Positions 411 to 31,868 are shown, numbered from the stretch's first letter. The stretch is DNA of 35,123 nt from a virus (IMGVR_UViG_3300048591_000212); one strand, 5' to 3'. Numbers and translations are program-made. Notes: generated by a model from the letters alone, not told the origin.

Positions 411-1309
411 AAACATTCAAAGAACACGCAAACATATATATAACCGAATCAGCAAGAAATAGTTATGAGGGAGTCTATGAGCCAATTAATAGTAAAGAAG
501 CTGTTCGGCTTCATGGTGACATTCTGAGGAAGTATTTTTCTGGTAAAAATAAAATATACCGTGGAGCTTTGGCGAAAAACTTTTTACCAGACAACAGTGT
601 TTATTATGGTCATGGAGAAAAGATACAAAGAAAGAGTGCATTTGCCGATAACAATCTTTATACAATTCTTATGTCAGAGATTTTGCCGTCATGGAGATCA
701 TATCCGAAGAGAAACAATTCATTTATTTGTACGAATAGTACCGAAAAGGCAGTTGACTACGGAAGAGTCTTTCACCATATTCCGTTGGAGAATCAAAAAA
801 TTGCTATATGTGCTGCCCCGGATTTGTGGGGAGCATTTGACTATATGAGGGATAAAATTGATGTTTATATTTTGAATGATTTCAATCATGAAATCTATAA
901 GTTTTTTTCGGTTATTATCGCTAAAGGTGGATTTTCCGAATACATTAAACTTACAGATGAAGTTTTTGATTCAAAGGATTCCACTATTAGATTATTTAAT
1001 ATGGTTGAAAACTATCTTAACACAAATAAAAACGCTGAAAAAATTTTGAAAGATGTTCCGAGCTTTTATCCAAAAGTCAGAAAAATTCTCAAAGTGATTG
1101 CTGATACACCAAACTTTTCTTTTATTGATTATTTTGATGATCTAATGAAACCAACAAACAATGATTTTGGTTTGAAAACTTTTGATGAATACATTACAAA
1201 TCATTCGTCCGATTCTGAATCAGAACTGTGGTTTAGTGGTAAATGCTTAGTGGTTGAATCAAACTTTGATACGATAAATTTTATGCGAAGGGAGCTTGAT
1301 TTGAAATGA
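407..1309 (+). CDS. Putative internal head protein, possible ADP-ribosyltransferase-like fold
   Basis: N-terminus MKTFKEHANIYITES resembles the T4 internal-protein capsid-targeting leader. IYRG / SFICTNS / ESELWF are spaced like an R-S-E ART triad (inference). ATGA coupling with the upstream gene. Confidence 0.55.
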   Translation: MKTFKEHANIYITESARNSYEGVYEPINSKEAVRLHGDILRKYFSGKNKIYRGALAKNFLPDNSVYYGHGEKIQRKSAFADNNLYTILMSEILPSWRSYPKRNNSFICTNSTEKAVDYGRVFHHIPLENQKIAICAAPDLWGAFDYMRDKIDVYILNDFNHEIYKFFSVIIAKGGFSEYIKLTDEVFDSKDSTIRLFNMVENYLNTNKNAEKILKDVPSFYPKVRKILKVIADTPNFSFIDYFDDLMKPTNNDFGLKTFDEYITNHSSDSESELWFSGKCLVVESNFDTINFMRRELDLK

Positions 1310-4290
1310 AAACATTCAAGCAAGTATTGACCGAGGCCCAGAACATAGACAAGGCCGTTGAAATTCTTCGGAATACCATCAAAGGAACCGAATGGGAGAA
1401 TCGTCTCTTTATAGCCGGGGGAGCTATTCGTGATGAACTTTTGGGAAAAGAAGTAAAGGACGTTGACTTTGTGGTTGATGGTGGCCCAGAAGCCGGAATG
1501 GATGCCGCAACCTTTATTGCCAAGAAACTCGGAGTATTCAAACAGGATTCAAATCCGGTTTTGTTTCCTACCTATGGCACAGCCAAGTTAACAATGAACG
1601 TGGATGGAGAGCCAATTGATATTGAATTTGTGGCACCCAGAACTGAAAAATACGAACCGGGCAGTCGAAAGCCTTTGGTGTCTCCGGGTACTCTCGACGA
1701 CGATGCTCACCGTCGAGATTTTACAGTAAATGCTCTTTTCAAAAATCTCACAACAAATGAAATTCTCGACCTGACGGGCAGAGGACTAACTGATCTCAAG
1801 AATAAGATTCTTCAGACAACCGGGAATGCCGACTGGATTTTCTCGGAAGATCCTCTGAGAATTCTGAGGGCCGTTCGGTTTGCCCTGAAGTACGACTTTC
1901 GGCTTCCTCTGGATGTTATTAAAGCAATCAAGAAAGCCTCACCTGATTTGGCAAATATTTCAGCCGAGAGAATTCAGGACGAATTAAAGAAGATTCTGGT
2001 TCTGGATAAGCCATCAAGAGCCATTCGTTTGTTCAAGATGACCGGAATTCTGAAGATGATTTTGCCGGAATTACAGGAATTGGTTGGCCTGAAACAAAAT
2101 ATGTACCATAAGGATGATGCTTTTTATCATACTTTGGAAGTTCTGGATAATACTCCTGCGGAATTTTCCAGAAGACTTTCAGCCCTGTTTCATGACATTG
2201 GAAAGGCCGCAACTCGTACCGAAAAGGACGGCAAGGTTCAGTTTATTGGACACGCCAATGTCGGTGCTGAGATAGCAAAGAAGGCAATGAAGAGATTGAA
2301 ATATCCGAATGATATTATTGATATGGTTGCCGATATGACAAAGTACCACATGGATCTAAAGTCTGCTGGACCTGAGGCCGAGTTATTAAAGGATTCTACT
2401 CTGAGAAAATTTGTATTTCGTGTGGCAGATAGACTTGAACCATTGTTAGATGTGATTCATGCCGACAATATTTCCCATACTCCAGAATATTCTATGCCGA
2501 AGCAGATTGAAATTATTCGAAAAAAGCTGGCAAACATGGATATTAATTCTATTTTGAATACCAAGTCGATTCTGGATGGAAATGAGATTAAGGAACTTGG
2601 TGCAGTCGGCAAGGAAATTCGTGAAATAAAGGACAGAATTCTGACCAAGGTTCTGGAAAATCCAGAATTTACTCGGCAACAGGCAGTCGGTTTGGCTAAG
2701 AATATGATTGATTCTTTTAGGAAAAAGAAGTTGTCTGAAAATACTCAAGAAGATGATCTTTGGGAGGTTAAGCGTGGAGCTTTGGATAAGAGAGATGAAA
2801 CCTATCGCCTAATGGTTGGTCTGCTTGGGGTTCAGGTAGACTCCCAGACCCGAAAGGTTTATTCTCCACCGGAATACATGATTCGGAGATTCAAGAAAAA
2901 GAAAATTACTGATACTCTGTACCAGACAATCAATTCGAATGGTTCTGAAATCTATACAATATGGAACGAAAAGACCGATATTCCGATTGCCTATCTAAAA
3001 CTACTGAAGGCCGACCTATTCGGAATTCCTGTGAAGAAAGTTAATATTGCCTTTGTACATCCGAGACATCAGGGCAAGGGAATTATGAAAGGAATATATA
3101 CCACTCTGATTCAGCAGCGGGGAATGACCTTTATTACAGGAGACTATCAATCCGCTGGTGCCGAGAAGCTATGGAAATCTCTCTATAATACCAATGAGAT
3201 TGAAGTATTTGCCATTAGCGAGGACGGAAAGATTTTGGAGGTAAGGCCGACGGCGAATGGTCTCGAAGGAATAAATGGCGAAGACTTGTTTGATTATAAT
3301 CGCGATTCATATAAAGATAACTATACTCTGGTAGCTACCATAAACAAGGAGAAATTCTCCGAGGGCCTGAATGAAGACATTTTTTCTTTTCATGAATACG
3401 ATGATTGGGGATTCATTAAGCCGGATGGATCTCTGCTGTCGGCGGTGTCTACTCCAGCAGTTAGAAAATTCGTTGATCGGAAAAACTCCAAGAACTTCTT
3501 TGTTCCCAGATTTGGGGCCATGCACTATGATGTTTTAGGAAAATTCTATTCATCATTTGATTTGAAAAAGAAACAGGAGCATAATTTTTTTGAGGCATTT
3601 AAGGAAGGATGGGTTCGGTATATCATTAATGATAATGAATTATTTCTGCACCTGAAGCCCGGAAGTATCGTTCCTGAAAATGTTCTGAAGGGAATTAGGC
3701 AGATGATATATCCGTTTTCAGTGGTCAATTTTGATTTTCAAAAGAATCTAAGGACCACAAAGAAAACGACCATTGAGCGGGCCAATCTGAACAAAATCAA
3801 GAATGTCATCAGTAATCATCCAGATGCAGCCGAGGCCCCAAAGAGAAAGTCCCTCAAGGAAGCCGACGCCCATCCGAAGCATAGAGAATGGGGCTGGATT
3901 CTTCCGAATGGTCAGATTCTTTCAAATAAGTCCACACCAGAAGTAATCGAATTCATTGAAGGAACACCTGATTTGGTTCATCATTTTGAGGTACTTCAGG
4001 AATTTACGAACTTTGATAGAATGTCGGACGTGCTGGAGGAGGGCGGCGTTCGCTTTATCGTAGAAGGAAATACTGCCTTTTTGGATATATATCCACCAGC
4101 AATCGAGCCGAGATTCATTTATACAAAAGCGACATTCTTGATAAATTGGGTATTTGTCAAAAAAGTCATAATCGGCTTCAATGACTATTCTGATTATTCT
4201 CAGGAAGGCTGGATGGAATTTAATTCCACGCCGAAGAGTCTACTGAATGATCTGAAGGAAATCAAGGCCAAGTACAATGAGGAAGAATAA
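1306..4290 (+). CDS. cca: CCA tRNA nucleotidyltransferase (class II, with HD domain) fused to a GNAT acetyltransferase and two repeated unknown domains
   Basis: Motifs GGAIRD..DVD, RRDFTVNAL, EDPLRILRAVRF and FHDIGK. GNAT motif A VHPRHQGKGIMK. Two DWGFIKPDG / EWGWILPNG domains. Confidence 0.9.
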   Translation: MKTFKQVLTEAQNIDKAVEILRNTIKGTEWENRLFIAGGAIRDELLGKEVKDVDFVVDGGPEAGMDAATFIAKKLGVFKQDSNPVLFPTYGTAKLTMNVDGEPIDIEFVAPRTEKYEPGSRKPLVSPGTLDDDAHRRDFTVNALFKNLTTNEILDLTGRGLTDLKNKILQTTGNADWIFSEDPLRILRAVRFALKYDFRLPLDVIKAIKKASPDLANISAERIQDELKKILVLDKPSRAIRLFKMTGILKMILPELQELVGLKQNMYHKDDAFYHTLEVLDNTPAEFSRRLSALFHDIGKAATRTEKDGKVQFIGHANVGAEIAKKAMKRLKYPNDIIDMVADMTKYHMDLKSAGPEAELLKDSTLRKFVFRVADRLEPLLDVIHADNISHTPEYSMPKQIEIIRKKLANMDINSILNTKSILDGNEIKELGAVGKEIREIKDRILTKVLENPEFTRQQAVGLAKNMIDSFRKKKLSENTQEDDLWEVKRGALDKRDETYRLMVGLLGVQVDSQTRKVYSPPEYMIRRFKKKKITDTLYQTINSNGSEIYTIWNEKTDIPIAYLKLLKADLFGIPVKKVNIAFVHPRHQGKGIMKGIYTTLIQQRGMTFITGDYQSAGAEKLWKSLYNTNEIEVFAISEDGKILEVRPTANGLEGINGEDLFDYNRDSYKDNYTLVATINKEKFSEGLNEDIFSFHEYDDWGFIKPDGSLLSAVSTPAVRKFVDRKNSKNFFVPRFGAMHYDVLGKFYSSFDLKKKQEHNFFEAFKEGWVRYIINDNELFLHLKPGSIVPENVLKGIRQMIYPFSVVNFDFQKNLRTTKKTTIERANLNKIKNVISNHPDAAEAPKRKSLKEADAHPKHREWGWILPNGQILSNKSTPEVIEFIEGTPDLVHHFEVLQEFTNFDRMSDVLEEGGVRFIVEGNTAFLDIYPPAIEPRFIYTKATFLINWVFVKKVIIGFNDYSDYSQEGWMEFNSTPKSLLNDLKEIKAKYNEEE

Positions 4291-4292
4291 TT

Positions 4293-5909
4293 ATGCCACA
4301 AGAGAAAATATACTATCTAAATCCGAACATCAAAAAGTCCAATGTCGTCGAACAGTTCACTGAAGAACAGGTTCAGGAATATATCAGGTGTTCTAAAGAT
4401 CCTATCTATTTCATTGAGAAATATGTGAAAATTATCTCAATTGATCATGGTCTGATTACCATAAAATTGGCCGAATTTCAAAAGGGACTGATAGATAAGT
4501 ATATGTCTAATCGTTTCAACATCATCACTGCTTCGAGGCAGGCATACAAGACAACTACAACTGTAGTATTTATGTTATGGTATTCAATATTTCATGATAA
4601 TAAGTTTATTGCTATTCTTGCAAATAAGGCCGAGACCGCCAGAGAAATTCTGGATAGAATCTATACTGCCTTGGAGCATGTGCCATTCTTTCTTCAGCCG
4701 GGTGTAAAGGAGTTAAATAAAGGCTCTGTTGAATTTGGAAATGGAACAAAGATTATGGCCTCGGCTACATCCAAAAGTTCTATTCGTGGTCGCTCGGTTG
4801 CTCTTTTGTATATTGACGAATATGCCTTCGTAGATAATGCGGAAGAATTTTTTAGGTCCACCTTTCCGACAATTTCATCTGGTGCCGAATCAAGAGTCAT
4901 TATTTCGTCAACTCCTCTCGGCCTAAACCATTTCTATAAATTATGGAAAGATTCAAACGAGGGCAGAAATAAGTTTGTTCCAACTCAGATTGAATGGTAT
5001 GACGTTCCGGGAAGGGATGAAAAATGGAAACAGGAGCAACTTGAGATTCTCGGAGAGCATGACTTCCGACAAGAATATGGAAATGAGTTCTTGGGGTCGG
5101 CGAATACTTTAATTGCTGGCTGGAAGCTCAAGGAAATGACACACGAGACTCCAATTCGATCCGACCTACATTATACAATAATCGAAGATCCCAAACCAGA
5201 TAATTCCTATATAGCAGTAGTGGATGGTTCCAGAGGAATCAATAATGATTATTCTACTATAACTGTTGTTAATATTACTGAATATCCTTTCCGAGTTGTC
5301 GCCACATATCGGAACAATGAGATTTCTACTCTGCTGTTTCCGAGACTGATTGTGGATTTTTGTAAAAAATACAATGATGCCTACTTATTAATTGAAAGAA
5401 ATAACATGGGCGATGCTATTGCCAAGGAATGTTATTACGAAGAGGGCTACGAAAATGTAATCTGTGCTAAGTCCGGTGGACGAAGGGGCCAGATTACTTC
5501 CCTTTCCCCAAAAAAGGACACTCTGCCGGGAGTTGAGATGACCAAATCAGTAAAGAGAATTGGTTGTTCAATTCTCAAAAATCTAGTAGAGGACGACAAA
5601 CTCATTTCCTTTACCGAGGACATTATTCTGGAATTGTATAATTTTGTTGGAAAGGCCGACACATTTCAGGCCGACGAGGATAAGCATGATGATTTGGTGA
5701 TGAATCTGGTTCTGTTCTGCTGGTTTGCCGACCAGCCACTATTTAAGGAAATTGCTGATATTAGTATTCGGGGCAAGATACGGGAGCCTGATCCAGAAAC
5801 CAAAATTCATATATACCAGTCACTCTCGGACGAAGACGAGGCAGTTAATTTATATAATGATGAATTGGCCGAGACCTTTCGATTGTTGGGTATAACTTCT
5901 CCTTCCTAG
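4293..5909 (+). CDS. gp17: Terminase large subunit (T4 gp17-like)
   Basis: DPIYFIEKY, Walker A-like SRQAYKT, Walker B LLYIDEYAF, SSTPLG, FRQEY, HDDLVM; located before the sheath gene. Confidence 0.95.
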   Translation: MPQEKIYYLNPNIKKSNVVEQFTEEQVQEYIRCSKDPIYFIEKYVKIISIDHGLITIKLAEFQKGLIDKYMSNRFNIITASRQAYKTTTTVVFMLWYSIFHDNKFIAILANKAETAREILDRIYTALEHVPFFLQPGVKELNKGSVEFGNGTKIMASATSKSSIRGRSVALLYIDEYAFVDNAEEFFRSTFPTISSGAESRVIISSTPLGLNHFYKLWKDSNEGRNKFVPTQIEWYDVPGRDEKWKQEQLEILGEHDFRQEYGNEFLGSANTLIAGWKLKEMTHETPIRSDLHYTIIEDPKPDNSYIAVVDGSRGINNDYSTITVVNITEYPFRVVATYRNNEISTLLFPRLIVDFCKKYNDAYLLIERNNMGDAIAKECYYEEGYENVICAKSGGRRGQITSLSPKKDTLPGVEMTKSVKRIGCSILKNLVEDDKLISFTEDIILELYNFVGKADTFQADEDKHDDLVMNLVLFCWFADQPLFKEIADISIRGKIREPDPETKIHIYQSLSDEDEAVNLYNDELAETFRLLGITSPS

Positions 5910-6001: not shown

Positions 6002-7693
6002 ATGACGACATTTTTTAATTCCCCACAAGTTGCCACAAGAGAGGTAGACCTAACTACTTCCGTTGTGGCACCTGCCTCTGGCACCGTGGCGATTGCTGGT
6101 GCCTTTACTTGGGGTCCGGTTAAACAAATTGTGAATGTTGGTTCAGAAGATGAAGTGGTGAGCATCTTCAGAAAACCAGATAATGATACAGCGGCAACCT
6201 TCTTCACCCTAGCAAATGCTCTTTCCTATACCGGAAATGCCAGAGTCGTTCGTGTTGGAGCATCTGGAATGATCAATGCAACATCCGGTTCGACTGGCGT
6301 TCTGGTAGAAAACGAAACTGATTATACTCAGAATCATTCTGCCGGAATTTCTGGAACAACATGGGTTGCAAAATATCCGGGTACTTTGGGAAATTCAATT
6401 GGGGTGTCAATCTGCGATCAGCAAAAGTTCGCTAATTGGTCCTTTGCTGGATTTTTCTCTTCGGCTCCGTCAACGAGTTCCTTTGCTGCCAGAACAAATG
6501 CCAATGCAAATGATGAATTACATATTGTGGTTTATGATGCAACCGGAGCAATTACCGGATCGGCAAATACGATTCTCGAAAAATATGAATTCGTTTCCAA
6601 GGCCGCTGGAGCCAAGACCGAAAATGGAGAAAATAACTATTACAAGGACGTAATTAACAGAAAGTCCGAATGGATCTGGTGGGGAAATCACCATGCTGGT
6701 GCTACCGCTCCCGGCGTGGCATGGGGTTCGACTGTTCCGGGGGCAACTGGCTTTGCTACCTTTGGGGCAACTGGCCCGATCTATCAGACCTTGGCTGGTG
6801 GTGTTGATGCAAATGTTCTTCAGTCGGCTCATGAAATCGCCGGATATGATCTGTTTAAGCCAGATAATGTTGAATATGATTTTCTGATGGCTGGTGGATC
6901 TCTACCAACAACGGTCGAATATCTGATCGATAATATTGCCGAAGTTCGTAAGGACGTTATTGTTACGCTGTCCCCTGAAAAGGATGACGTTGTGGATAAT
7001 TTCGAATCCGAGGTAACCGACACGACTGCTTTCAGAAATACTCTGAATTCTTCGACCTATGCGTTTTTGGATTCGGGCTGGAAGTACCAGTATGACAAGT
7101 ACAATGATGTGTTCCGCTGGATTCCTCTCAATGGTGATACCGCTGGCCTGATGGCTCGTGTTGATCCTTGGGTGTCTCCTGCTGGCCTAAATCGTGGATT
7201 CGTCAAGAATGTTTTCAAGATGGCATGGGAGCCTTCGAAGGCAGATCGGGATCTGATCTATCCGGTTGGTATTAATCCGGTAATGACTGTAGAGGGACAA
7301 GGAGTTGTTCTGTTTGGAGATCGAATGATGACTTCGAAACCTTCGGCCTTCAGAGACGTGAATGTTCGCAGATTGTTTATTCTTTTGAGAAAGGCAATCT
7401 CCAGAACTGCCCAATTCACTTTGTTTGAATTGAATAATGAATTCACGCGGGCGCGTTTTGTGGCAACCGTCGAGCCTTTCCTGAGAGACCTAAAGGGCCG
7501 TGGGGCAATCATCGATGGTCTGGTAAAATGTGACGACAAGAACAATACTCCACAGGTAATTAACACCAATTCATTTGTGGCTGATATTTTTATTAAGCCG
7601 CCACGCAGCATCAACTATATCCGACTGAACTTCATTGCGGTTCCAGAAGGAATTAGCCTGACAGAGATCGCAGGATCTAACCAATTATTCTAA
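6002..7693 (+). CDS. gp18: Tail sheath protein
   Basis: SPQVATREVDLT, GAFTWGP, KYQYDKYND..RWIPLNGD, SPAG..RG, NVRRLF. Confidence 0.95.
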   Translation: MTTFFNSPQVATREVDLTTSVVAPASGTVAIAGAFTWGPVKQIVNVGSEDEVVSIFRKPDNDTAATFFTLANALSYTGNARVVRVGASGMINATSGSTGVLVENETDYTQNHSAGISGTTWVAKYPGTLGNSIGVSICDQQKFANWSFAGFFSSAPSTSSFAARTNANANDELHIVVYDATGAITGSANTILEKYEFVSKAAGAKTENGENNYYKDVINRKSEWIWWGNHHAGATAPGVAWGSTVPGATGFATFGATGPIYQTLAGGVDANVLQSAHEIAGYDLFKPDNVEYDFLMAGGSLPTTVEYLIDNIAEVRKDVIVTLSPEKDDVVDNFESEVTDTTAFRNTLNSSTYAFLDSGWKYQYDKYNDVFRWIPLNGDTAGLMARVDPWVSPAGLNRGFVKNVFKMAWEPSKADRDLIYPVGINPVMTVEGQGVVLFGDRMMTSKPSAFRDVNVRRLFILLRKAISRTAQFTLFELNNEFTRARFVATVEPFLRDLKGRGAIIDGLVKCDDKNNTPQVINTNSFVADIFIKPPRSINYIRLNFIAVPEGISLTEIAGSNQLF

Positions 7694-8357: not shown

Positions 8358-9974
8358 ATGTCATTATTTGATTTTTTCGGCTTCGAGATAAAAAGAAAGG
8401 ATAATTCTGAGCAGAATCTTTCGGCTGTTGTTCCACAAACAGATACCGAGGGCGGGCAGATTATTGATAGAAATGCGAGTGCTTTTACTACTCTTTCTTA
8501 TAATCTTGACTTTACGGCAGAAGACTCGGCATCTCTGATAAACAAATATCGAGAACTTTCCATTCAGTCTGATGTTGAATCCGCAATTGACGAAATCATC
8601 AATGAGGCAATCTATATTGGAGAATTTGAATCTCCAATTTCATTAAATCTGGATAACCTGAAATTTTCTGATAATATTAAGGATCTGATTCAGAAAGAAT
8701 TTCAATATATTCTGAATCTTCTGAACTTCAATGAAAATGCCTATGAAATCTTCAAGAGATGGTATGTCGATGGCAGGCTCTATTTCAATATTGTGATCAA
8801 TCTAGACAAGCCCAAGGAAGGAATTCAGGAGCTTCGGTATATTGATCCTCGTAAGCTGAAGAAGATTAAAGAAGTAAAGAACGAGAAGATTGTGGGTAGT
8901 TCCATTATTCCGATTGATTTTAGAGAATATTATCTCTATGATGGTTTTTCAAAGGAGATTCCGGTTGATGCTGTGGCCTCGGCTACTTCTGGTTTGGTTG
9001 ATGATAAAAATTCGGCAATTGTTCTGTCCTACCTTCATGGAGCCATTAAGCCTTATAATCAGCTAAGAATGCTCGAAGATTCAATGGTCATTTATTACCT
9101 GTCGCGGGCCACCGAACGACGAGTCTTTAATGTGGAGGTTGACACGATTCCACAACACAAGGTCGAGCAGTACATGAATGCGATCATTCAGAAATTCAAG
9201 AATAAGATCGCCTATGACTCTCAGACAGGAAATCTTCGGGATGACGTGAAGACTCTTTCAATCATGGAAGACTTTTGGTTTCCAATGAGAGAGGGCAAGG
9301 GAACCACCGTCACTTCTCTGGCTGGTGGACAAAATCTAAATGATCTGTTGGCTTCTTCGGAATTTTTTCAAAGAAAATTCTATCGGTCTCTGAGAGTTCC
9401 AATGGGCCGAATTATTGGTGGAGAGAATTCGACATTTAATACTGGTCGGGCCACTGAAATTGCCCGCGAGGAACAGAAATTCAGCAAATTTATTAAGCGG
9501 CTCAGAATGAGATTTTCTTCTCTATTTACAGACATGCTAAGAGTTCAGTTGGTTCTGAAGAATATTATTTCAGCCGAAGAATGGAATCTCCTTGTTAACA
9601 ATAATTTGTACTATGATTTTAGACAGGACTCTCACTTTGCTGAATATAATGAATCAGAAATTGAGTCTCGTAGAATGGAACTCGCGGCTCAGGCCGAGGG
9701 TCTAAGGGATCATTTCAGTAAGAAGTATATTCAGAAGAATTTTCTTCGGCTGTCAGAAGAAGATATCAAGGAAATCGAAAAGGACAAGCTATTCGAAAAG
9801 AATAAGAAAAAGACACCAATTGAAGATGAAGAGACTATGGGTGATGACGAGTTTGGAGACTTCTCACCAGCACCGAGAACTCAGACATCATTTAACCAGC
9901 CGTCGGTTCCTCCGACTCCAGCTACCTCAGAACCGAAGGAGCCAGAGACGCCAACGCCAACACAGGAGACATAA
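8358..9974 (+). CDS. gp20: Portal protein
   Basis: FKRWYVDGRLYF, ELRYIDPRK, SYLHGAIKPYNQLRMLED, EDFWFP.REG. Confidence 0.95.
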   Translation: MSLFDFFGFEIKRKDNSEQNLSAVVPQTDTEGGQIIDRNASAFTTLSYNLDFTAEDSASLINKYRELSIQSDVESAIDEIINEAIYIGEFESPISLNLDNLKFSDNIKDLIQKEFQYILNLLNFNENAYEIFKRWYVDGRLYFNIVINLDKPKEGIQELRYIDPRKLKKIKEVKNEKIVGSSIIPIDFREYYLYDGFSKEIPVDAVASATSGLVDDKNSAIVLSYLHGAIKPYNQLRMLEDSMVIYYLSRATERRVFNVEVDTIPQHKVEQYMNAIIQKFKNKIAYDSQTGNLRDDVKTLSIMEDFWFPMREGKGTTVTSLAGGQNLNDLLASSEFFQRKFYRSLRVPMGRIIGGENSTFNTGRATEIAREEQKFSKFIKRLRMRFSSLFTDMLRVQLVLKNIISAEEWNLLVNNNLYYDFRQDSHFAEYNESEIESRRMELAAQAEGLRDHFSKKYIQKNFLRLSEEDIKEIEKDKLFEKNKKKTPIEDEETMGDDEFGDFSPAPRTQTSFNQPSVPPTPATSEPKEPETPTPTQET

Positions 9975-15577: not shown

Positions 15578-16849
15578 ATGGAAATCAAAGACCTTTTGAA
15601 GAAATGGCAACCTATTCTGGAAGCGAAAGAACTTCCTGAAATTAAGGACCAGTACCGCAAGGAATGTACTGCCATTCTTCTGGAAAATCAAGACAAGTGT
15701 AATCAGCGTGAAAATCAGGTGCTTGCAGAATCGGCTCCTGCTAACGTCACTGCTAATGTTTCGAAATATGATCCGGTGCTAATTCAGCTAATTCGGCGTA
15801 TGGCTCCAAATCTGATGGCCTATGACGTTTGTGGTGTTCAGCCCATGGATCTTCCGAATGGTATCGTCTTTGCCATGAGAGCAAAGTACGGAACCGGAGC
15901 AACCGGTCCTCTGTCTGCAACTGAGGCTCTGTACAATGAAGCAAATACCGCATGGTCTGGAACTGGTACTCATGGTGCCGATATCATTCCTTCCGGTATT
16001 GGTGGGGCAACTGGCGCATTGGCGTCGTTTGGCGTTGCTGCCGCAACCGCTTCGTTGGAAGGTGCTGCTCTGAATAAGATGGGTGTGACTATTGAGAAAG
16101 TAACCGTTGAGGCAAAAACTCGTGGTCTGTCCGCTGACTTCAGCTTGGAACTGGCGCAGGACATGAAAGCAGTTCACAAGCAGGATGCTGATACAGTAAT
16201 CAGTGACATTCTGAATACTGAATTGCTGTCCGAAATTAACCGTGAAGTTATTCGTACCATTTATAAAATTGCTAAGTTCGGGGCGCAGTCTCGTACAGCA
16301 AATGCTGGTGGTATTGACCTTGATGTGGATACCGATGGACGTTGGTCGGTGGAAAGATTCAAGGGTCTTCACTTCTATGTTGAATCCGAGGCCCATCAGG
16401 TCGCGAAGACGACTCGTAGAGGAAAGGGAAATATTATCATCTGTTCCGCAGATGTGGCTACTGCTCTGGCAATGTCTGGACAGCTAGACTATGCTCCTGC
16501 TCTTTCTACTGATCTGACTGTTGACGACACAGGAAATACATTTGCTGGTATTCTGAATAAGAAATACAAGGTTTATGTTGACCCTTACTTCTCGTCTGGC
16601 GATGCGACTTGGACGGACATTATGGTCGTTGGCTATAAGGGTTCTAATGCCCTTGATGCCGGATTATTCTACTGTCCTTACCAGCCACTAGTGAAGTTGA
16701 ATGCAGTTGACCCAACGAACTTTACTCCAGTGATGGGATTTAAGACTCGTTACGGTATGGTTGCCAACCCTCTCAATGGAGACGGAACAACTCTGGCTGC
16801 AAATAGCAACTTCTACTACCGCCGAGTGCTTATCAGCAACATTCTGTAA
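15578..16849 (+). CDS. gp23: Major capsid protein
   Basis: KWQPIL, LLENQ, CGVQPM, ELAQDMKAVH, EINREVIR, GLFYCPY, GFKTRYG; L-A-E cleavage site. Confidence 0.97.
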   Translation: MEIKDLLKKWQPILEAKELPEIKDQYRKECTAILLENQDKCNQRENQVLAESAPANVTANVSKYDPVLIQLIRRMAPNLMAYDVCGVQPMDLPNGIVFAMRAKYGTGATGPLSATEALYNEANTAWSGTGTHGADIIPSGIGGATGALASFGVAAATASLEGAALNKMGVTIEKVTVEAKTRGLSADFSLELAQDMKAVHKQDADTVISDILNTELLSEINREVIRTIYKIAKFGAQSRTANAGGIDLDVDTDGRWSVERFKGLHFYVESEAHQVAKTTRRGKGNIIICSADVATALAMSGQLDYAPALSTDLTVDDTGNTFAGILNKKYKVYVDPYFSSGDATWTDIMVVGYKGSNALDAGLFYCPYQPLVKLNAVDPTNFTPVMGFKTRYGMVANPLNGDGTTLAANSNFYYRRVLISNIL

Positions 16850-18247: not shown

Positions 18248-18601
18248 CTAAAAAATCTCCTCTTCAATAAACTGCGGCTGCATCCAGTATTCCACTTTTT
18301 CTCGAACCTCAAGTTCAATCTGCTCCTGAGTCTTCGCACCAGCCAACTGCGAGGCCCGCATCTTGATCCAATTTTTCAGGACTGGAGAGTTCGCCAGCCG
18401 ACGAAAAGCGATCTTTTCATTCTGAGCCTGAGACCTTTCATCGCAGGACTGTCCGGTTGCTCCCGACTCAATATGAGTAAATCGGACGCCAGTTTCTCTT
18501 CTATTGACGTTTTGCCCACCATTACCACCACACCGAAAGGTGTCTCGCTTCAGGTCTTTTTTGGTTATTGAAAAGAGTAGTTGCTTCGGCTTCATTCCCA
18601 A
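18248..18601 (-). CDS. Class I release-factor GGQ-domain protein (ArfB/PrfH-like peptidyl-tRNA hydrolase)
   Basis: CGGNGGQNVNRRETGVRFTH..SG..ERSQAQN. Confidence 0.85.
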   Translation of the reverse strand: MGMKPKQLLFSITKKDLKRDTFRCGGNGGQNVNRRETGVRFTHIESGATGQSCDERSQAQNEKIAFRRLANSPVLKNWIKMRASQLAGAKTQEQIELEVREKVEYWMQPQFIEEEIF

Positions 18602-19086
18602 TCTGGCTCCCTTTCAAATCGCAATCGAATTTGCGTCAGAATTTTTCCTAAAAGATTCTGACCTCTCCACATGTGAGGATAGAACCTTCGTTCATCGGTA
18701 TCACTGAGGCCAATTCCCCAGATCACATCAAGAGGAGACGCCTCGACAATAAGCGTTCCTTTGGTGTCTAGAAGAACATTTCGTGGATGACGACACTGTT
18801 TGAATTTGTAAATATTGATTGTCTTTACGATAATCTCTCTGAATCGAGTCCATCTTTCTTCATCAAAGTTTCGAACTCGCCTTCCAAGAACTTTTTGTTC
18901 CTTCGGCCCCAGAGCCTTCAGAATCAGATCGGCAGTATCGGCATCCTTAAACAATAGTGCCTTATGGTACATCGTGGCCTGTTCAGCACAATTGAACTCA
19001 ATTCCATTTATTTTGAATTTACAGGGATACCACTGAGACAGAGGGCCGCCCCGAAAGAAGGAAAATTTAGTGAATTGATCAATCAT
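18592..19086 (-). CDS. NADAR family protein (YbiA / T4 30.3-like)
   Basis: LSQWYP, AEQ..M..KA, EASPLDVIWGIG, GQNLLGKIL. Confidence 0.92.
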   Translation of the reverse strand: MIDQFTKFSFFRGGPLSQWYPCKFKINGIEFNCAEQATMYHKALLFKDADTADLILKALGPKEQKVLGRRVRNFDEERWTRFREIIVKTINIYKFKQCRHPRNVLLDTKGTLIVEASPLDVIWGIGLSDTDERRFYPHMWRGQNLLGKILTQIRLRFEREPDWE

Positions 19087-20762: not shown

Positions 20763-20953
20763 TAGAGTTTTACTCGTTCACCATTACAGAGAATGTTGAG
20801 AAAGGGGGTGCCGTCCCAATCCAGTATTTCTTTATCCAATTCGTGTTCTCTGTATAATTTTCCACAAATCTGACAAACGCACTCACCATTGCTTCGATAA
20901 AAAAACCAAGTGGTGAAGGCTTCGGATCGATTGTCATCTTTTTCTTTATTCAT
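20762..20953 (-). CDS. Small CxxC zinc-binding hypothetical protein
   Basis: MNKEK...CVCQICGK..H; overlaps the ligase stop. Confidence 0.65.
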   Translation of the reverse strand: MNKEKDDNRSEAFTTWFFYRSNGECVCQICGKLYREHELDKEILDWDGTPFLNILCNGERVKL

Positions 20954-22055
20954 AATCCCTAAACGCAATTCCTCTGCCGAACTTTGGAATATCGGCATCA
21001 GTCTTTTGATTAAATCGAACAGTAAGCATTTTTCCGACATACTGATCTGCGATCTTGTACATTCTGCGCTTCTCAGCAATACTACACTTAGGATTAACCT
21101 TAAATGTTTCACCAGTTGCGGAGTCGAGACAGATCCAAATAACACAATCCGAGTACGAATCTTCTCCACTCATAAATCCAACAATCTTGTATTCTGCGTC
21201 CTCGAAATCCTTATATTTGAGAAGAGAATTGGTGCGCTTCCCAAACTCATAAGCACCATTCGGATTTCGATAAATGGTCCCCTCGTAGTCGTCTTCAGTA
21301 AATTGCCTATGATAAAACAGCATGTCCTCGAATGTCTTTACTTCAATCGTTCTTACCCGAATAATTGACGGAAAAGAATTAAGCTCCAAGAATCTTTCAC
21401 TTGAGAGCAATTCATTCCTTTCAAGAAAGGTCATGTCTGGCTCGTTCATGTCGATACAATCAAAGACATGAAATTCCAGAGAATTGGATTTTTCCTGATT
21501 CTTCTTCACCCAAGAAACAAGCGTCTGAAGAGATGTACCATGAATATACATTTCGCCATCCAGACAGATATTTGAATTTGCGGAAAGAAATTGACGCAAT
21601 TGTTTCTTAATATGCGGAACATTAAAATTCTTTCCTTCCCGACTCATGAGAACAACTTCTTCCTCTTCAACGTCCCAATATGCCAGACACCGAACGCCAT
21701 CCAGCTTTTTTTGGATAAATGCCGGAAATGAAATATTCTTGGCCTTGACATTCTTGTAGTCCTTCGCCAGCATTGGAAGAAATACTCCCTCTTGGGCGTC
21801 CTCTGGAGTCAGTGAATACTTTCGGTCCAGCTTTTTCTTCCAGAGACTCTGGGCATCGAGAAGTGCCTGTTCTTCTGGAGAAGTCTCATTTGACCTCCCG
21901 ATATTCTTGGCCTTACCCCACTTCTGAGTAAGAACCTTTCGGCCCTCTAGGGTTCCGGTTCGAATATCGATTCGTTTACCGGACACACTGATATCAAATG
22001 TGTGGAGCTTTCCGGTTCGGCTCTTGGTATACAAAGTTGGAAAAGTTCTATTCAT
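20946..22055 (-). CDS. lig: ATP-dependent DNA ligase
   Basis: PMLAK, KLDGVRC, LDGEMY, FHVFD, EGTIYR, LLKYK, C-terminal OB fold. Confidence 0.92.
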   Translation of the reverse strand: MNRTFPTLYTKSRTGKLHTFDISVSGKRIDIRTGTLEGRKVLTQKWGKAKNIGRSNETSPEEQALLDAQSLWKKKLDRKYSLTPEDAQEGVFLPMLAKDYKNVKAKNISFPAFIQKKLDGVRCLAYWDVEEEEVVLMSREGKNFNVPHIKKQLRQFLSANSNICLDGEMYIHGTSLQTLVSWVKKNQEKSNSLEFHVFDCIDMNEPDMTFLERNELLSSERFLELNSFPSIIRVRTIEVKTFEDMLFYHRQFTEDDYEGTIYRNPNGAYEFGKRTNSLLKYKDFEDAEYKIVGFMSGEDSYSDCVIWICLDSATGETFKVNPKCSIAEKRRMYKIADQYVGKMLTVRFNQKTDADIPKFGRGIAFRDYE

Positions 22056-22074
22056 AATAATTATCCTAAAGCGG

Positions 22075-22195
22075 CTCCCTCGCAAGGTTTCGAACCTTGA
22101 ACCTTCTGGTTATTCTTGAGAACATGAGTTTCGAACTCAAACAAGACCAAATCGTTCTCCACAGCCAGACGCTCTGCCAATTGAGCTACAAGGGA
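22075..22195 (-). tRNA. tRNA-Asn(GTT) interrupted by a 48-nt insert in the anticodon (22113-22160)
   Basis: TCCCTTG/CGAGGGA acceptor with G73, canonical D and T arms, TCTGG-CTGT[insert]TAA-CCAGA. Confidence 0.85.
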
Positions 22196-22205
22196 AGAAT
22201 CCGTA

Positions 22206-22616
22206 CTACCAATCAATTAAAATCAAATATTCGCCAGCTTCAAGAATTCCTCGTTCATAGAGATCCTGAGCCACGGTTTCGGGTCTTGGGAAAAAGACTC
22301 GATGCCACCATAATTCCGTAACAAAGTCAATATCTTTCCAATGAAGGTCACCCTTATTTTTAATTGGTGTACTTGGATCTCGCGCCAGCCATACTGGAAA
22401 TTTTACTCCACAAGTATCATTTGCATTGAGGTTTTCGTCAGCCCAATCCAATGCCTCACTCTCAACAAACTCGACTTCTTCTGGATTCGGCACGACCAAC
22501 TTCAGATGCCCCCGATCCAAACACCCAAATTGCTGCTGAACACAATACGGCTTTTTGTATGTCTGTTCGACCAAATCGTCCCACTCGTACATATCAAACA
22601 CATTCATTTTCTTCAT
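22206..22616 (-). CDS. Hypothetical protein
   Basis: 136-aa ORF ending GEYLILIDW. Confidence 0.75.
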   Translation of the reverse strand: MKKMNVFDMYEWDDLVEQTYKKPYCVQQQFGCLDRGHLKLVVPNPEEVEFVESEALDWADENLNANDTCGVKFPVWLARDPSTPIKNKGDLHWKDIDFVTELWWHRVFFPRPETVAQDLYERGILEAGEYLILIDW

Positions 22617-22628
22617 ATGATTTGCCTA

Positions 22629-22709
22629 AGAGAATGTTCTGTGGAATCGAACACCACTTCAAGTAAGTGCATTACCCGACAAGCCCCCCCAAACGGCTTG
22701 AACATTCTC
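22629..22709 (-). ncRNA. Non-canonical tRNA-like cloverleaf (Cys-like, GCA loop)
   Basis: 10-bp terminal stem GAGAATGTTC/GAACATTCTC, three arms, GTTCGATTC T-loop. Confidence 0.7.
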
Positions 22710-22716
22710 GAAATTT

Positions 22717-22848
22717 TATATATCACCCAACACCAACCCTGAAATTGGTGTTTAGAAGTTGAAACATTTCAAAGGTCCATGACTTCCTTTTACTCTATTA
22801 TCTAAGTCCTTACTCCTAGAAGGCTACACAGGCTTAGAGTGATATATA
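22717..22848 (-). ncRNA. Candidate structured ncRNA
   Basis: 12-bp closing helix TATATATCACTC/GGGTGATATATA with internal hairpins. Confidence 0.55.
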
Positions 22849-22849
22849 G

Positions 22850-22923
22850 TAACCTTGGCGGGATTCGAACCCGCGATCTCCAGATTGAAAGTCTGGCGGC
22901 TTGAGCCTCTTGCCTACAAGGTC
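22850..22923 (-). tRNA. tRNA-Glu(TTC), no CCA
   Basis: GACCTTG/CAAGGTT acceptor, CCAGA-CTTTCAA-TCTGG anticodon arm, GCGGG-TTCGAAT-CCCGC T arm. Confidence 0.92.
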
Positions 22924-24183: not shown

Positions 24184-25500
24184 TTACTCCTCCACTACCT
24201 CTTCGCTTTCCATGTCGGCAACGCCCTTGTCCAAATCCTCGGATTCCTTTTTCAAGAACTCAAAGGACTTCAGCTTGTAGGCTTCGGCCTGCTCCAAGCG
24301 ATCCTTTCGGATCACAATTCCCTCGGCGGGCAACTTTTCATTAAACCAGCACTTCTTGCCATCCACATAGGTTTCCTCCAAGAAGGTCACAAATGCTTCC
24401 TGCCAGTCGCGCACGTCCGAAAAGGTGTTCGGAAGCAATTCCGACGCCTTACCATAGAAAACAGTAGGCACAGTTTCAAAACCCCAAGACTGACAAAATT
24501 CGATCATCTGAGGCCAAGACAATTCAACCACCTTACCGTCAACATTGGTAAAGGTCACGCGATACACAACAAACTTGTGCTGGTTCGGAACACAGCCGTA
24601 GTAGTAGCCGCCCTGAATGTTTCCACCATCGGGAGTGAACCCGACAATTTCACCGTACAGAGTGAACCCCTTCGGCAAGCGGTCAGCCACTTCATCCTTT
24701 ACCACAGAGTAAATATCTGAGGAGTAGTAAGAACCAGCCGAATTATTGGTCCATTCAGAGACGCCTTTAACAACCTTTCGAGAAGACCAGACAATTCCGT
24801 ATTCCTTTTCAACAACCGGAATACCAACAAAACGGGCAACCTTTTCAAACCACTTCAACTCTCGATTCACCAACAAGTTAGCAATCACAACCGAAGTTCC
24901 GTGCCACTTATCGGAAATAGAAATAACGTCATTCGGCTCAATCCGGTGAGAATTTCGGCGCAAGTTCGCGGTGTCATAATGAAACCGAAACTGCTCCACA
25001 GCAATTCGATCAGCCAACTTCTTCGTGGCCTTTTTGGTGTTCGGCTGACCGGGAGTACGAGCATTTCGCGGAACATACTTCCGGCAAATCTCGACTTCAC
25101 CCACTTCGTCAAATTCAGAACCAACAGGAAACTCAGCCAACGAAACATTCAAAAATTCCAATGACGCCAAAGGAATCCAGAAACCTTCAGACTTGTGGCC
25201 CCGGAACTTCATAGTCTTTACGCGACCATGCTGCTCAAAGAAACCAGTCTTTTCTGGATTGACGTTACCAAATTCCGGCTTACGGTACAGATTGTTGTTG
25301 GACAAGAACGCAGCCGACAATGCAGTTTCGGCAGGAAAGAACACACCAACCGTTCCCGGCTCGGTGTCCTTTGACACTACAACACGATAGCCAAAGATGA
25401 CAGCGTGCTTCACATTATCACAGTTCGGCAAGTCAACGAAAGTTTCAACCTTCGTGACGATTGCACAATAATTTTTATTTTTTGGTTCCTTGAAGGTCAT
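24184..25500 (-). CDS. ATP-dependent RNA ligase (Rnl2-like, DRB0094 type with N-terminal OB-like domain)
   Basis: Motif I DKWHGTS, III YGEIVG, IIIa FVVYRV, IV EGIVIR, V YKLKS; N-terminal K.RG.KSEG. Confidence 0.85.
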   Translation of the reverse strand: MTFKEPKNKNYCAIVTKVETFVDLPNCDNVKHAVIFGYRVVVSKDTEPGTVGVFFPAETALSAAFLSNNNLYRKPEFGNVNPEKTGFFEQHGRVKTMKFRGHKSEGFWIPLASLEFLNVSLAEFPVGSEFDEVGEVEICRKYVPRNARTPGQPNTKKATKKLADRIAVEQFRFHYDTANLRRNSHRIEPNDVISISDKWHGTSVVIANLLVNRELKWFEKVARFVGIPVVEKEYGIVWSSRKVVKGVSEWTNNSAGSYYSSDIYSVVKDEVADRLPKGFTLYGEIVGFTPDGGNIQGGYYYGCVPNQHKFVVYRVTFTNVDGKVVELSWPQMIEFCQSWGFETVPTVFYGKASELLPNTFSDVRDWQEAFVTFLEETYVDGKKCWFNEKLPAEGIVIRKDRLEQAEAYKLKSFEFLKKESEDLDKGVADMESEEVVEE

Positions 25501-29237: not shown

Positions 29238-29308
29238 GGCCTCGAAACTTTAAGGTGAAGTAACGGACTTTTAATCCGTAAAAGATGGGTCAGTACCATC
29301 CGGGGCTA
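29238..29308 (+). tRNA. tRNA-Lys(TTT), atypical T-loop GTCAGTA, no CCA
   Basis: GGCCTCG/CGGGGCT acceptor, ACGGA-CTTTTAA-TCCGT anticodon arm. Confidence 0.8.
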
Positions 29309-29920: not shown

Positions 29921-30071
29921 GCGGCTGATTAATCGAAAATGGACGAGATGCCTCAAAACGAAGGGGTTTCATGAAAACCGTTCCAGAAGCACCGAATGGC
30001 TCTGAGAAGGTCTGTAGGGAAGCGGGTTCATCGGTTCATGAACACTGTGGGTTCGATTCCCACCAGCCGTA
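29921..30071 (+). ncRNA. About 150-nt RNA with a tRNA-type acceptor stem and T arm but an expanded core
   Basis: GCGGCTG/CAGCCGT-A acceptor, GTGGG-TTCGATT-CCCAC T arm, internal TTCATGAA/TTCATGAA helix. Confidence 0.75.
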
Positions 30072-30076
30072 CTTTA

Positions 30077-30264: not shown

Positions 30265-30445
30265 CCTTAGAATAGTCATGAATATTCTGAGGGGCTGGTG
30301 AAAGTAGGAGAAAGTATTGGTAGTTTAATGGTCAAAACACCGGGCGAAACTCGGAAATAAAGGTTCAAGTCCTTTCCAGAAATCCAGAAAATTTAAATTC
30401 TCATTGGCCGATGGGGGTTTAATTCGACAAACGCTTTCACCAGTT
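30265..30445 (+). ncRNA. Structured RNA with an embedded tRNA-like domain (30314-30386)
   Basis: GGCTGGTGAAAG/CTTTCACCAGTT helix encloses a D arm, a short anticodon-like arm, a TTCAAGT T arm and a long hairpin. Confidence 0.6.
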
Positions 30446-31835: not shown

Positions 31836-31868
31836 CACTGCTTCGGTTCAAGTCCGAACTCTGCAACT
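31836..31868 (+). pseudogene. Isolated tRNA 3' half (T arm plus acceptor strand)
   Basis: TTCGG-TTCAAGT-CCGAA-CTCTGCA-A-CTA. Confidence 0.6.

Follow-up and report, generated by a model that had tools for sequence, protein, structure and literature searches.

Known tRNA introns and the split tRNA-Asn gene

Removal of introns from transfer RNA (tRNA) by proteins is textbook knowledge for archaea and eukaryotes, and for bacteria, to our knowledge, group I introns that splice themselves have been the only kind recognized in tRNAs. Here we describe a tRNA-Asn gene whose anticodon is interrupted by an insert of 48 nucleotides (nt) shaped like a miniature tRNA, located in IMGVR_UViG_3300048591_000212, a stretch of 35,123 nt hereafter called the window. 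The source of the window is an uncultured, T4-like phage of about 181 kilobases (kb), tailed with a contractile tail, from an aquatic sample. Its host was assigned as bacterial because the tRNA-Tyr (89 nt) encoded in the window is of class II.

The closest described elements are those of the Lak megaphages, whose tRNAs were reported to have "enigmatic", highly conserved introns, one of them with a tRNA predicted to be encoded inside it (Devoto et al. 2019, PMC6784885). The Lak introns are 79–114 nt in length and open with a hairpin leader (about 25 nt) on the 5' side, behind which the tRNA-like domain extends to 2-3 nt from the 3' exon (Table S6, PMC6784885). This was the single precedent found within the full-text library searched, and no published removal mechanism was found there. 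The Lak introns and the window insert both interrupt the anticodon loop of a phage tRNA and have an acceptor stem and a T arm of the TTCGAAT type. In addition, they have in common that the tRNA-like domain ends 2–4 nt before the 3' exon, that the sequence is near-invariant between genomes, and that there is no Rfam family. They differ in that some Lak introns contain a near-complete inner tRNA, whereas the window insert has no leader, D arm or anticodon arm in its 48 nt. The stems of the two were visibly different, as judged by reading Table S6, and so were the phages, Lak being a 540-kb gut megaphage. A preliminary description of the locus had proposed a wholly new intron type, and in this respect it was preempted by the published Lak introns with their tRNA-like domain; by its sequence, the window insert is best described as a minimal version of the Lak-like kind in a new type of phage.

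Two better-known classes of tRNA intron offer further comparisons. The introns of archaea and eukaryotes (removed by EndA/Sen and joined by RtcB or Trl1) are short, protein-spliced and located in the anticodon loop, with exons that are held by the tRNA domain and joined by a ligase, all of which would apply to the window insert as well. However, they are cut in a bulge-helix-bulge at 37/38, whereas the window insert is at 35/36, in a phage of a bacterial host, and it is apparently the tRNA shape of the intron that is recognized. We know of no EndA in bacteria. The group I introns of bacterial tRNAs (e.g., tRNA-Leu(UAA) of cyanobacteria) resemble the insert in lying within the anticodon and in a patchy distribution that suggests mobility, but they are 200 nt or more in length and have a catalytic core.

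The split gene is on the minus strand of the window, from 22195 to 22075 (121 nt), and has a complete bacterial-type tRNA-Asn body. The outer acceptor stem (TCCCTTG/CGAGGGA) has 7 base pairs (bp), with U1-A72 and the discriminator base G73. The outer D arm has a 4-bp stem (GCTC/GAGC) and the loop AATTGGCA, the anticodon stem (TCTGG/CCAGA) has 5 bp, the variable loop has 5 nt and the T arm (CAAGG-TTCGAAA-CCTTG) has a 5-bp stem. The two strands of the anticodon stem are separated by 55 nt, made up of the usual 7-nt loop and an additional 48 nt. The 5' exon (22161..22195, minus strand) comprises the 5' strand of the acceptor stem, the D arm, the 5' strand of the anticodon stem and C32 U33 G34 U35. 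The 3' exon (22075..22112, minus strand) comprises U36 A37 A38, the 3' strand of the anticodon stem, the variable loop, the T arm, the 3' strand of the acceptor stem and G73. All 31 of the proposed pairs were standard, both in the window and in a second copy of the gene (L125, see below). The identity elements for asparaginyl-tRNA synthetase are G34 U35 U36 and G73, with U1-A72 being typical of bacterial tRNA-Asn, and the joined exons have this entire set. The Asn-type body with U1-A72 and G73 had already been recognized as intact in the preliminary description, and the present analysis, in which every arm was accounted for, supported that view, as it did the view that the interruption of this body is real and conserved; the sequence of the insert was exactly as had been quoted.

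The split gene was not reported by ARAGORN in its default mode or by the Rfam tRNA model, which gave a sub-threshold match only. If ordinary tRNA-processing enzymes do remove the insert, standard tRNA finders would, by this example, undercount the tRNAs of phages. ARAGORN in intron mode detected the gene with a 48-nt intron, and computational deletion of the 48 nt at the GT|T register gave a product that the standard mode called tRNA-Asn(gtt). An assembly artefact was excluded because an independent assembly from the Joint Genome Institute (L126) is identical over the split gene. No second tRNA-Asn gene was found in the window.

Six registers for the insert would each leave a 7-nt anticodon loop, and these would specify Ile(AAU), Ile(GAU), Asn(GUU) or His(GUG). 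Related phages were searched with a covariance model built from the split gene, and the matches were aligned with MAFFT. Among the best uninterrupted matches of the model were three tRNA-Asn(GUU) genes (L136:5695-5767; L122:2940-3011, from G001; and L120:3682-3754, from G002). In the alignment all three leave a single 48-nt gap exactly between GT and TAA, and the anticodon arm of the L120 gene is the same, base for base, as that of the joined exons. The Ile registers (AAU or GAU, one of which was ARAGORN's own call) were rejected, as the last base of the insert, A in the window and G in L125, would alter the anticodon. By the rules of tRNA identity, G73, U1-A72 and a missing G-1 speak against His; the gene has all three of these features and its body is homologous to the Asn genes, and the His(GUG) register, which had earlier been kept as an alternative, was also rejected. 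The Asn register is fixed because the alignment gap, the last-base difference in L125 and the identity elements all agree. On these comparisons we place the insert at 22113-22160 of the window, between anticodon positions 35 and 36, which is the GT|T split originally put forward. The related phages L120, L122 and L136 thus have uninterrupted alleles of the same tRNA, indicating that the insert was either gained or lost. Since such alleles exist, the insert is probably mobile.

Structure, conservation and recurrence of the insert

The insert (22113..22160, minus strand) is equivalent to a mini-tRNA from its position +1 to its position 76. Its first element is the 5' strand of the inner acceptor, GGAGAAC (22154..22160; inner +1 to +7), followed by an unpaired 13-nt linker (22141..22153) that contains GG and takes the place of the D and anticodon arms. 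The inner T arm (22124..22140) has four Watson-Crick pairs plus a U.U layer, and its T loop, TTCGAAA, is closed by G-C. The 3' strand of the inner acceptor, GTTCTCA (22117..22123), is continuous with the 3' strand of the T stem. The last element is a 4-nt tail, AGAA (22113..22116), consisting of a discriminator-like base and 3 nt, with the end of the insert being inner position 76. The inner acceptor has seven layers, six of them Watson-Crick pairs and the first a G.A mismatch. Together with the T arm it makes a coaxial stack of 12 layers, and, as in every tRNA, the 3' strand covers 12 nt between the T loop and inner position 72.

The GAGAAC/GTTCTC stem and the TGAG-TTCGAAA-CTCA hairpin, both of which had been noted on first inspection, make up the minimum-free-energy fold of the insert. 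The acceptor/T stack had been estimated at roughly 12 pairs, and the count of 12 layers was in keeping with this. A "tiny GG-containing arm" that had also been proposed was not recovered, as the 13-nt linker was unpaired in all low-energy folds. By itself the folding energy of the insert is unremarkable (z about -0.9). A script encoding the acceptor/T-arm grammar passed only three of 2,000,000 random 48-mers of window composition, and in the window itself it passed only the insert and one spot within the tRNA-Glu gene. The shape of the insert is well beyond chance.

The second copy of the split gene was found in a contig of the Logan collection (L125) that has a homologue, 73% identical, of the DNA ligase encoded downstream of the split gene in the window. 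The same split tRNA is at 8-128 of this contig. The two genes differ at 8 of 121 positions, six of which are among the 73 exon positions and two among the 48 of the insert. The 46 identical bases of the insert include every position of the inner stems, and differing stems are found only across families (see L202 below); the two changes are a G-to-A in the linker and the last base of the tail, A to G (AGAG). By comparison, the ligase genes of the two phages have 72% DNA identity, with 45% at four-fold degenerate sites, indicating saturation, and the neighboring tRNA-Ser is heavily diverged in L125. The probability of two or fewer changes in 48 nt at the neutral rate was 6e-14. The exon differences include two compensatory double changes, at pair 5-68 (T-A to C-G) and at pair 50-64 (A-T to T-A), and one pair that changed from G-C to G.U. 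As read from the two sequences, the compensatory changes show that there has been selection for the tRNA structure since the copies separated.

These comparisons bear on the possibility that the gene is a pseudogene. From the sequences, a decayed pseudogene is unlikely because the insert is conserved at saturated divergence and because there are two compensatory exon pairs. The same data speak to a related explanation, in which the tRNA was inactivated by a small mobile element or a tRNA fragment and owes its conserved look to recent transfer. The two double changes arose in exon stems after the copies had separated, divergence in the insert does not exceed that in the exons (2/48 versus 6/73), and the inner structure of the insert is precise and recurs with a different sequence in another phage (see below). 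The gene was, however, found in two lineages only, with scans of public collections being otherwise empty, and an HNH homing-type endonuclease is beside the gene in the relative, which makes local gene conversion plausible. On balance we hold this to be very improbable, and the least likely of the alternatives considered here.

The surroundings of the gene also differ between the two phages. Among public sequencing runs, no RNA run was listed for window positions 21400-22900, and a single DNA run matched a small share of this segment; the neighborhood of the gene in the relative was read from the contigs of that run. ORF136, an open reading frame (ORF) upstream of the split tRNA in the window (22206-22616, minus strand), is absent in the relative. 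The HNH endonuclease gene (612 nt) is inserted in the relative between the split tRNA and the DNA ligase (HNH endonuclease, L125:172-603, plus strand; phrog_35854, E = 6.6e-30). Flanking protein genes thus turn over from one phage to the other, and the split tRNA and the RNA genes are retained. Because the HNH gene adjoins the split tRNA in the relative, we speculate that the insert protects the gene from a homing endonuclease aimed at uninterrupted tRNA-Asn DNA. The model for this idea is the collaborative homing in which a group I intron is paired with a free-standing endonuclease.

To look for the same design elsewhere, we scanned IMG/VR for two T loops 37-51 nt apart. Among the 80 loci returned there was one clear further case, a split tRNA-Arg(UCU) of a jumbo phage, present with identical sequence in three contigs from different samples (L202:7549-7672, minus strand; L236:2300-2423, plus strand; L250:5485-5608, minus strand). 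The L202 insert has 47 nt, with 4 loop nt, a perfect 7-bp inner acceptor, a 12-nt GG linker and a 5-bp T arm. It ends with the 7-nt acceptor strand and the 4-nt tail CTCC, after which the 3' exon starts with TAA. Its position, between 35 and 36, and its layout are identical to those of the window insert, with linkers of 12-13 nt, and the grammar script returned x=4 and tail=4 for the window, L125 and L202 alike. In contrast, all the stem sequences differ, the outer tRNA is Arg and not Asn, and the tail is CTCC instead of AGAA. As all stem sequences differ, it is the architecture, and not the sequence, that is shared. The jumbo phage is unrelated as far as the fragments show, there being no match to the major capsid protein (MCP) in L202, L236 or L250.

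Other searches returned no further copies. In IMG/VR the exact insert, its 21-nt inner core and the exons with a 38-58-nt gap each had 0 matches. A search of metagenome contigs with the junction pattern had nine matches, all of them chance matches in coding DNA without tRNA context. In bacterial and archaeal genomes the inner core had 0 matches, and the exons with a gap had one chance match, in an Armatimonadota contig. In 65 loci with relatives of the RNA ligase and 41 loci with relatives of the MCP, ARAGORN in intron mode identified 0 real split tRNAs; its intron-mode calls within tRNA arrays were chimeras of adjacent tRNAs.

Conservation and compensatory change require a structured RNA only and not a decoding tRNA. 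The 121-nt RNA could, for instance, persist unspliced as a stable tRNA-like molecule, acting as a decoy for anticodon nucleases or tRNA-binding defence, or as a processing signal in an ORF136-tRNA-ligase transcript. Host anticodon nucleases are known to target phage tRNAs, and the same phage has other odd RNAs with tRNA-like ends (29921-30072 and 22629-22709). Nevertheless, the joined exons make an exact tRNA-Asn, including G34 U35 U36 A37 A38, with the anticodon arm of the uninterrupted homologue. In addition, the same geometry at the same loop position in the tRNA-Arg of an unrelated phage indicates an inserted element and not a purpose-built decoy. For these reasons we consider an unspliced role to be quite unlikely.

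Proposed removal of the insert and candidate enzymes

The 48-nt insert is much shorter than a group I intron, which needs about 200 nt or more and a catalytic core (P3-P9) that binds guanosine, and a search of Rfam to E = 10 over 21900-22400 gave only the sub-threshold tRNA match, with no group I or II intron and no self-cleaving ribozyme. A canonical bulge-helix-bulge has two 3-nt bulges with a 4-bp helix between them and is cut in the bulges. None could be drawn here: constrained and suboptimal folds of the split gene gave a 3-bp helix flanked by bulges of 1 nt and 4 nt. In the canonical 37/38 register the loop bases were, on inspection, unable to pair, and the host is also bacterial. The initial judgement that the insert is too short for a group I or II intron and has no bulge-helix-bulge was therefore upheld in both parts. 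The insert is incapable of self-splicing, and proteins are needed for its removal.

Taking these findings together, we lean, if only slightly, towards the gene encoding a functional phage tRNA-Asn(GUU) with a small, protein-dependent intron at 35/36 that is cut out by way of its own mini-tRNA shape, after which the exons are ligated. It is most likely that the inner mini-tRNA shape, and not the surrounding tRNA, marks both cut sites, because both ends of the insert are the ends of the inner mini-tRNA here and in L202, where the outer tRNA is a different one. From this arrangement we infer that the RNA is spliced, with the enzymes and end chemistry as follows. A cut by RNase P at inner +1 would give U35 a 3'-OH, and a cut just past the 4-nt tail by a second hydrolytic endonuclease would give U36 a 5'-phosphate. 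The outer acceptor stem and anticodon stem would keep the exons in register, and an ATP-dependent RNA ligase would seal the nick. Ligases of this kind act on such ends, which are the ones expected from hydrolytic cuts, and the phage enzyme encoded at 24184-25500 is the obvious candidate.

Several properties of the junctions are consistent with such a route. Bacterial RNase P recognizes and measures the stack of acceptor and T arm and cuts 5' of +1. If 12 layers are counted off starting at the inner T loop, the inner +1 coincides exactly with the 5' junction, which had been derived independently from the alignment with homologues. At this junction there is U at -1 and G at +1, which are the bases preferred by RNase P. 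The exact +1-to-76 form of the mini-tRNA suggests that ordinary tRNA-processing enzymes do the removal. At the 3' junction, the single-stranded, A/U-rich context GAA|UAA appears compatible with an RNase E-type cut, and some RNase Z/BN enzymes have been reported to cut after an encoded CCA.

Other observations weigh against this reading. This particular insert is in only two lineages and its stems are invariant, so that there is no covariation within the family, and the low divergence of the two copies (8/121) could come partly from a recent lateral transfer of the RNA-gene segment. The U/G match at the 5' junction may be a coincidence, as the corresponding bases in L202 are C/C. The 3' junction is after inner position 76, which is 3 nt past the canonical RNase Z cut after position 73; after a canonical cut the 3' exon would still have three surplus bases and the loop would have 10 nt, and a different enzyme or mode would be needed. 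We know of no bacterial enzyme with an established, sequence-independent cut after position 76. The Lak introns have a 5' leader before their inner tRNA, and there a simple RNase P cut cannot make the end of the 5' exon. Finally, ligases of the DraRnl type, which the phage enzyme resembles (see below), are known for sealing nicks in duplex RNA and not for the repair of anticodon loops. Of the excision by RNase P and RNase Z that the preliminary description had suggested, the first half is supported by the coincidence of the 5' junction with inner +1, whereas the second is at odds with a 3' junction 3 nt beyond the RNase Z site.

Two of these points, the non-canonical 3' cut site and a Lak leader that RNase P alone could not remove, would be accommodated if the insert were spliced by a dedicated phage or host endonuclease recognizing the inner mini-tRNA in place of RNase P/Z-type enzymes. 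The ends produced by such an enzyme might be 2',3'-cyclic phosphate and 5'-OH, to be healed (e.g., by the HD-domain phosphoesterase of the CCA-adding enzyme plus a kinase) and ligated, or to be joined directly by host RtcB. The phage has an HD-domain CCA enzyme and several unassigned proteins beside its RNA genes. We scanned the phage's own proteins for nucleases and polynucleotide kinases in approximately 30 ORFs of the 35-kb window, out of a genome of about 181 kb. Searches of these ORFs with Pfam, PHROG and NCBIfam identified no EndA, HEPN, PIN or metallo-beta-lactamase domain as a candidate splicing endonuclease, and no polynucleotide kinase or Pnkp was seen, which argues against a dedicated enzyme. 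We regard this explanation as unlikely.

The candidate ligase (24184..25500, minus strand) is encoded about 2 kb upstream of the split tRNA on the same strand. It has a match to phrog_968, an RNA ligase family (E = 3.5e-64), and its C-terminal region has a PF09414 nucleotidyltransferase domain (residues 259-401, E = 5e-11). The N-terminus has an oligonucleotide-binding (OB) fold (PF21189, residues 14-111), and there is a weak match to the DraRnl model TIGR02306. In Rnl2 the nucleotidyltransferase domain is N-terminal and is followed by the Rnl2 C-terminal domain; in the window ligase it is C-terminal, with the OB fold first, and an Rnl2 assignment was rejected. Judged from its domains, the architecture is DraRnl-like rather than T4 Rnl2-like. 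An Rnl2-type ligase 2 kb upstream had been part of the initial proposal; an RNA ligase is indeed there, on the same strand, but it is of the other type. A search of PDB sequences with the ligase had 0 matches. In the three jumbo phage contigs, which are 34-62% complete, PF09414, PF09511 and the window ligase itself had no match, but with PF09511, as a control, matching nowhere, these negatives are not informative.

Systems with related steps are known. The mascRNA at the 3' end of MALAT1 and the tRNA punctuation of mitochondria serve as working analogies, as in both a tRNA-shaped element within a longer RNA recruits the enzymes that process tRNA ends, RNase P and RNase Z, and so sets the cut sites. 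There, however, the flanks are not religated, whereas the window insert would need precise rejoining and a 3' cut 3 nt past the RNase Z site. In the tRNA repair of phage T4 (PrrC, with Pnkp and Rnl1) a phage RNA ligase likewise reseals a break in the anticodon loop. That system differs in that the substrate is damaged host tRNA-Lys, the ends are cyclic phosphate and 5'-OH, and the ligase is of another family; the window case would be the programmed maturation of a phage tRNA.

A more general possibility is a third route of tRNA splicing, used by bacteria and their phages, whereby a mini-tRNA intron is released by RNase P and an endonuclease that measures to position 76 and a phage ligase rejoins the exons. 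We offer this tentatively and hold it to be doubtful. If it were true, phage RNA ligases would have a housekeeping role in tRNA maturation beyond the repair of damage, the inserts would be mobile elements spreading between tRNA genes, and they might shield a gene from neighboring homing endonucleases or anticodon-directed defences. The use of ordinary enzymes would also explain the presence of RNA ligases and CCA enzymes in many large phages, and the inserts would then constitute a class of mobile RNA element that is new. For biochemistry the locus provides a compact substrate, comprising a 121-nt pre-tRNA with an unambiguous junction, a candidate ligase encoded 2 kb away and a natural variant in L125.

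Gene neighborhood and other RNA genes

The window has PHROG matches to the large terminase (4293-5909), tail sheath (6002-7693), portal (8358-9974) and major head protein (15578-16849), as well as to a prohead protease and scaffold. Searches of the INPHARED phages gave 0 matches in near mode and tRNA-Glu only in distant mode, indicating that the phage has no close relatives in that collection. An ATP-dependent DNA ligase (20946-22055) is encoded directly downstream of the split tRNA. At least nine conventional tRNA genes are present in the window. The CCA-adding enzyme with an HD domain forms the N-terminal 450 amino acids of a 994-residue protein (1306..4290, plus strand) encoded near tRNA clusters, and the remaining approximately 550 residues were not assigned a function. 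We count this protein among the phage's equipment for processing tRNA ends. Two adjacent genes (18248-18601 and 18592-19086, both minus strand) encode a 117-residue RF-1 domain protein whose nearest relatives are PrfH/ArfB-type factors and a NADAR domain protein beside tRNA clusters.

The noncoding segment between ORF136 and tRNA-Glu (22626-22848, minus strand) is about 94% identical in the relative's contig, where the flanking genes are diverged or absent. It has two T-arm-like hairpins (around 22707-22691 and 22652-22640) and probably contains more small RNA genes. Another RNA gene, of 152 nt, is located between tRNA-Ala and tRNA-Gly (29921-30072, plus strand); its acceptor stem has 7 bp, its T arm is canonical and it has an extra 6-bp hairpin. 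ARAGORN in intron mode called it Tyr(gta) with a 57-nt intron, a call that looks forced. With its poor D arm and anticodon stem, and an insert without a T loop, it was ruled out as an element of the same minihelix type.

Two tRNAs, at 29238-29308 and 30314-30383 (both plus strand), were detected by Rfam and not by ARAGORN, and the first of these has an odd T loop. A lone T-arm hairpin (31842-31858, plus strand) just past the end of a gene has no tRNA body and is possibly a tRNA 3' fragment. Across the window all T-arm-like hairpins belonged to tRNA genes, tRNA-like RNAs or this tRNA 3' fragment, with the exception of one 4-bp match in a coding gene.

Minor observations were also made in the other phages. 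ARAGORN identified tRNAs with a CTA anticodon, of the amber-suppressor type, at L136:5034-5183 (plus strand) and L202:531-604 (minus strand), a hint of TAG recoding in those phages. In L120 (3847-3965, plus strand; equivalent to G002:168846-168964) the 3' part of a tRNA, about 46 nt from the anticodon loop to the 3' end, is repeated perfectly and in tandem directly behind the gene, which resembles the duplications that result when integration or recombination takes place in a tRNA gene.

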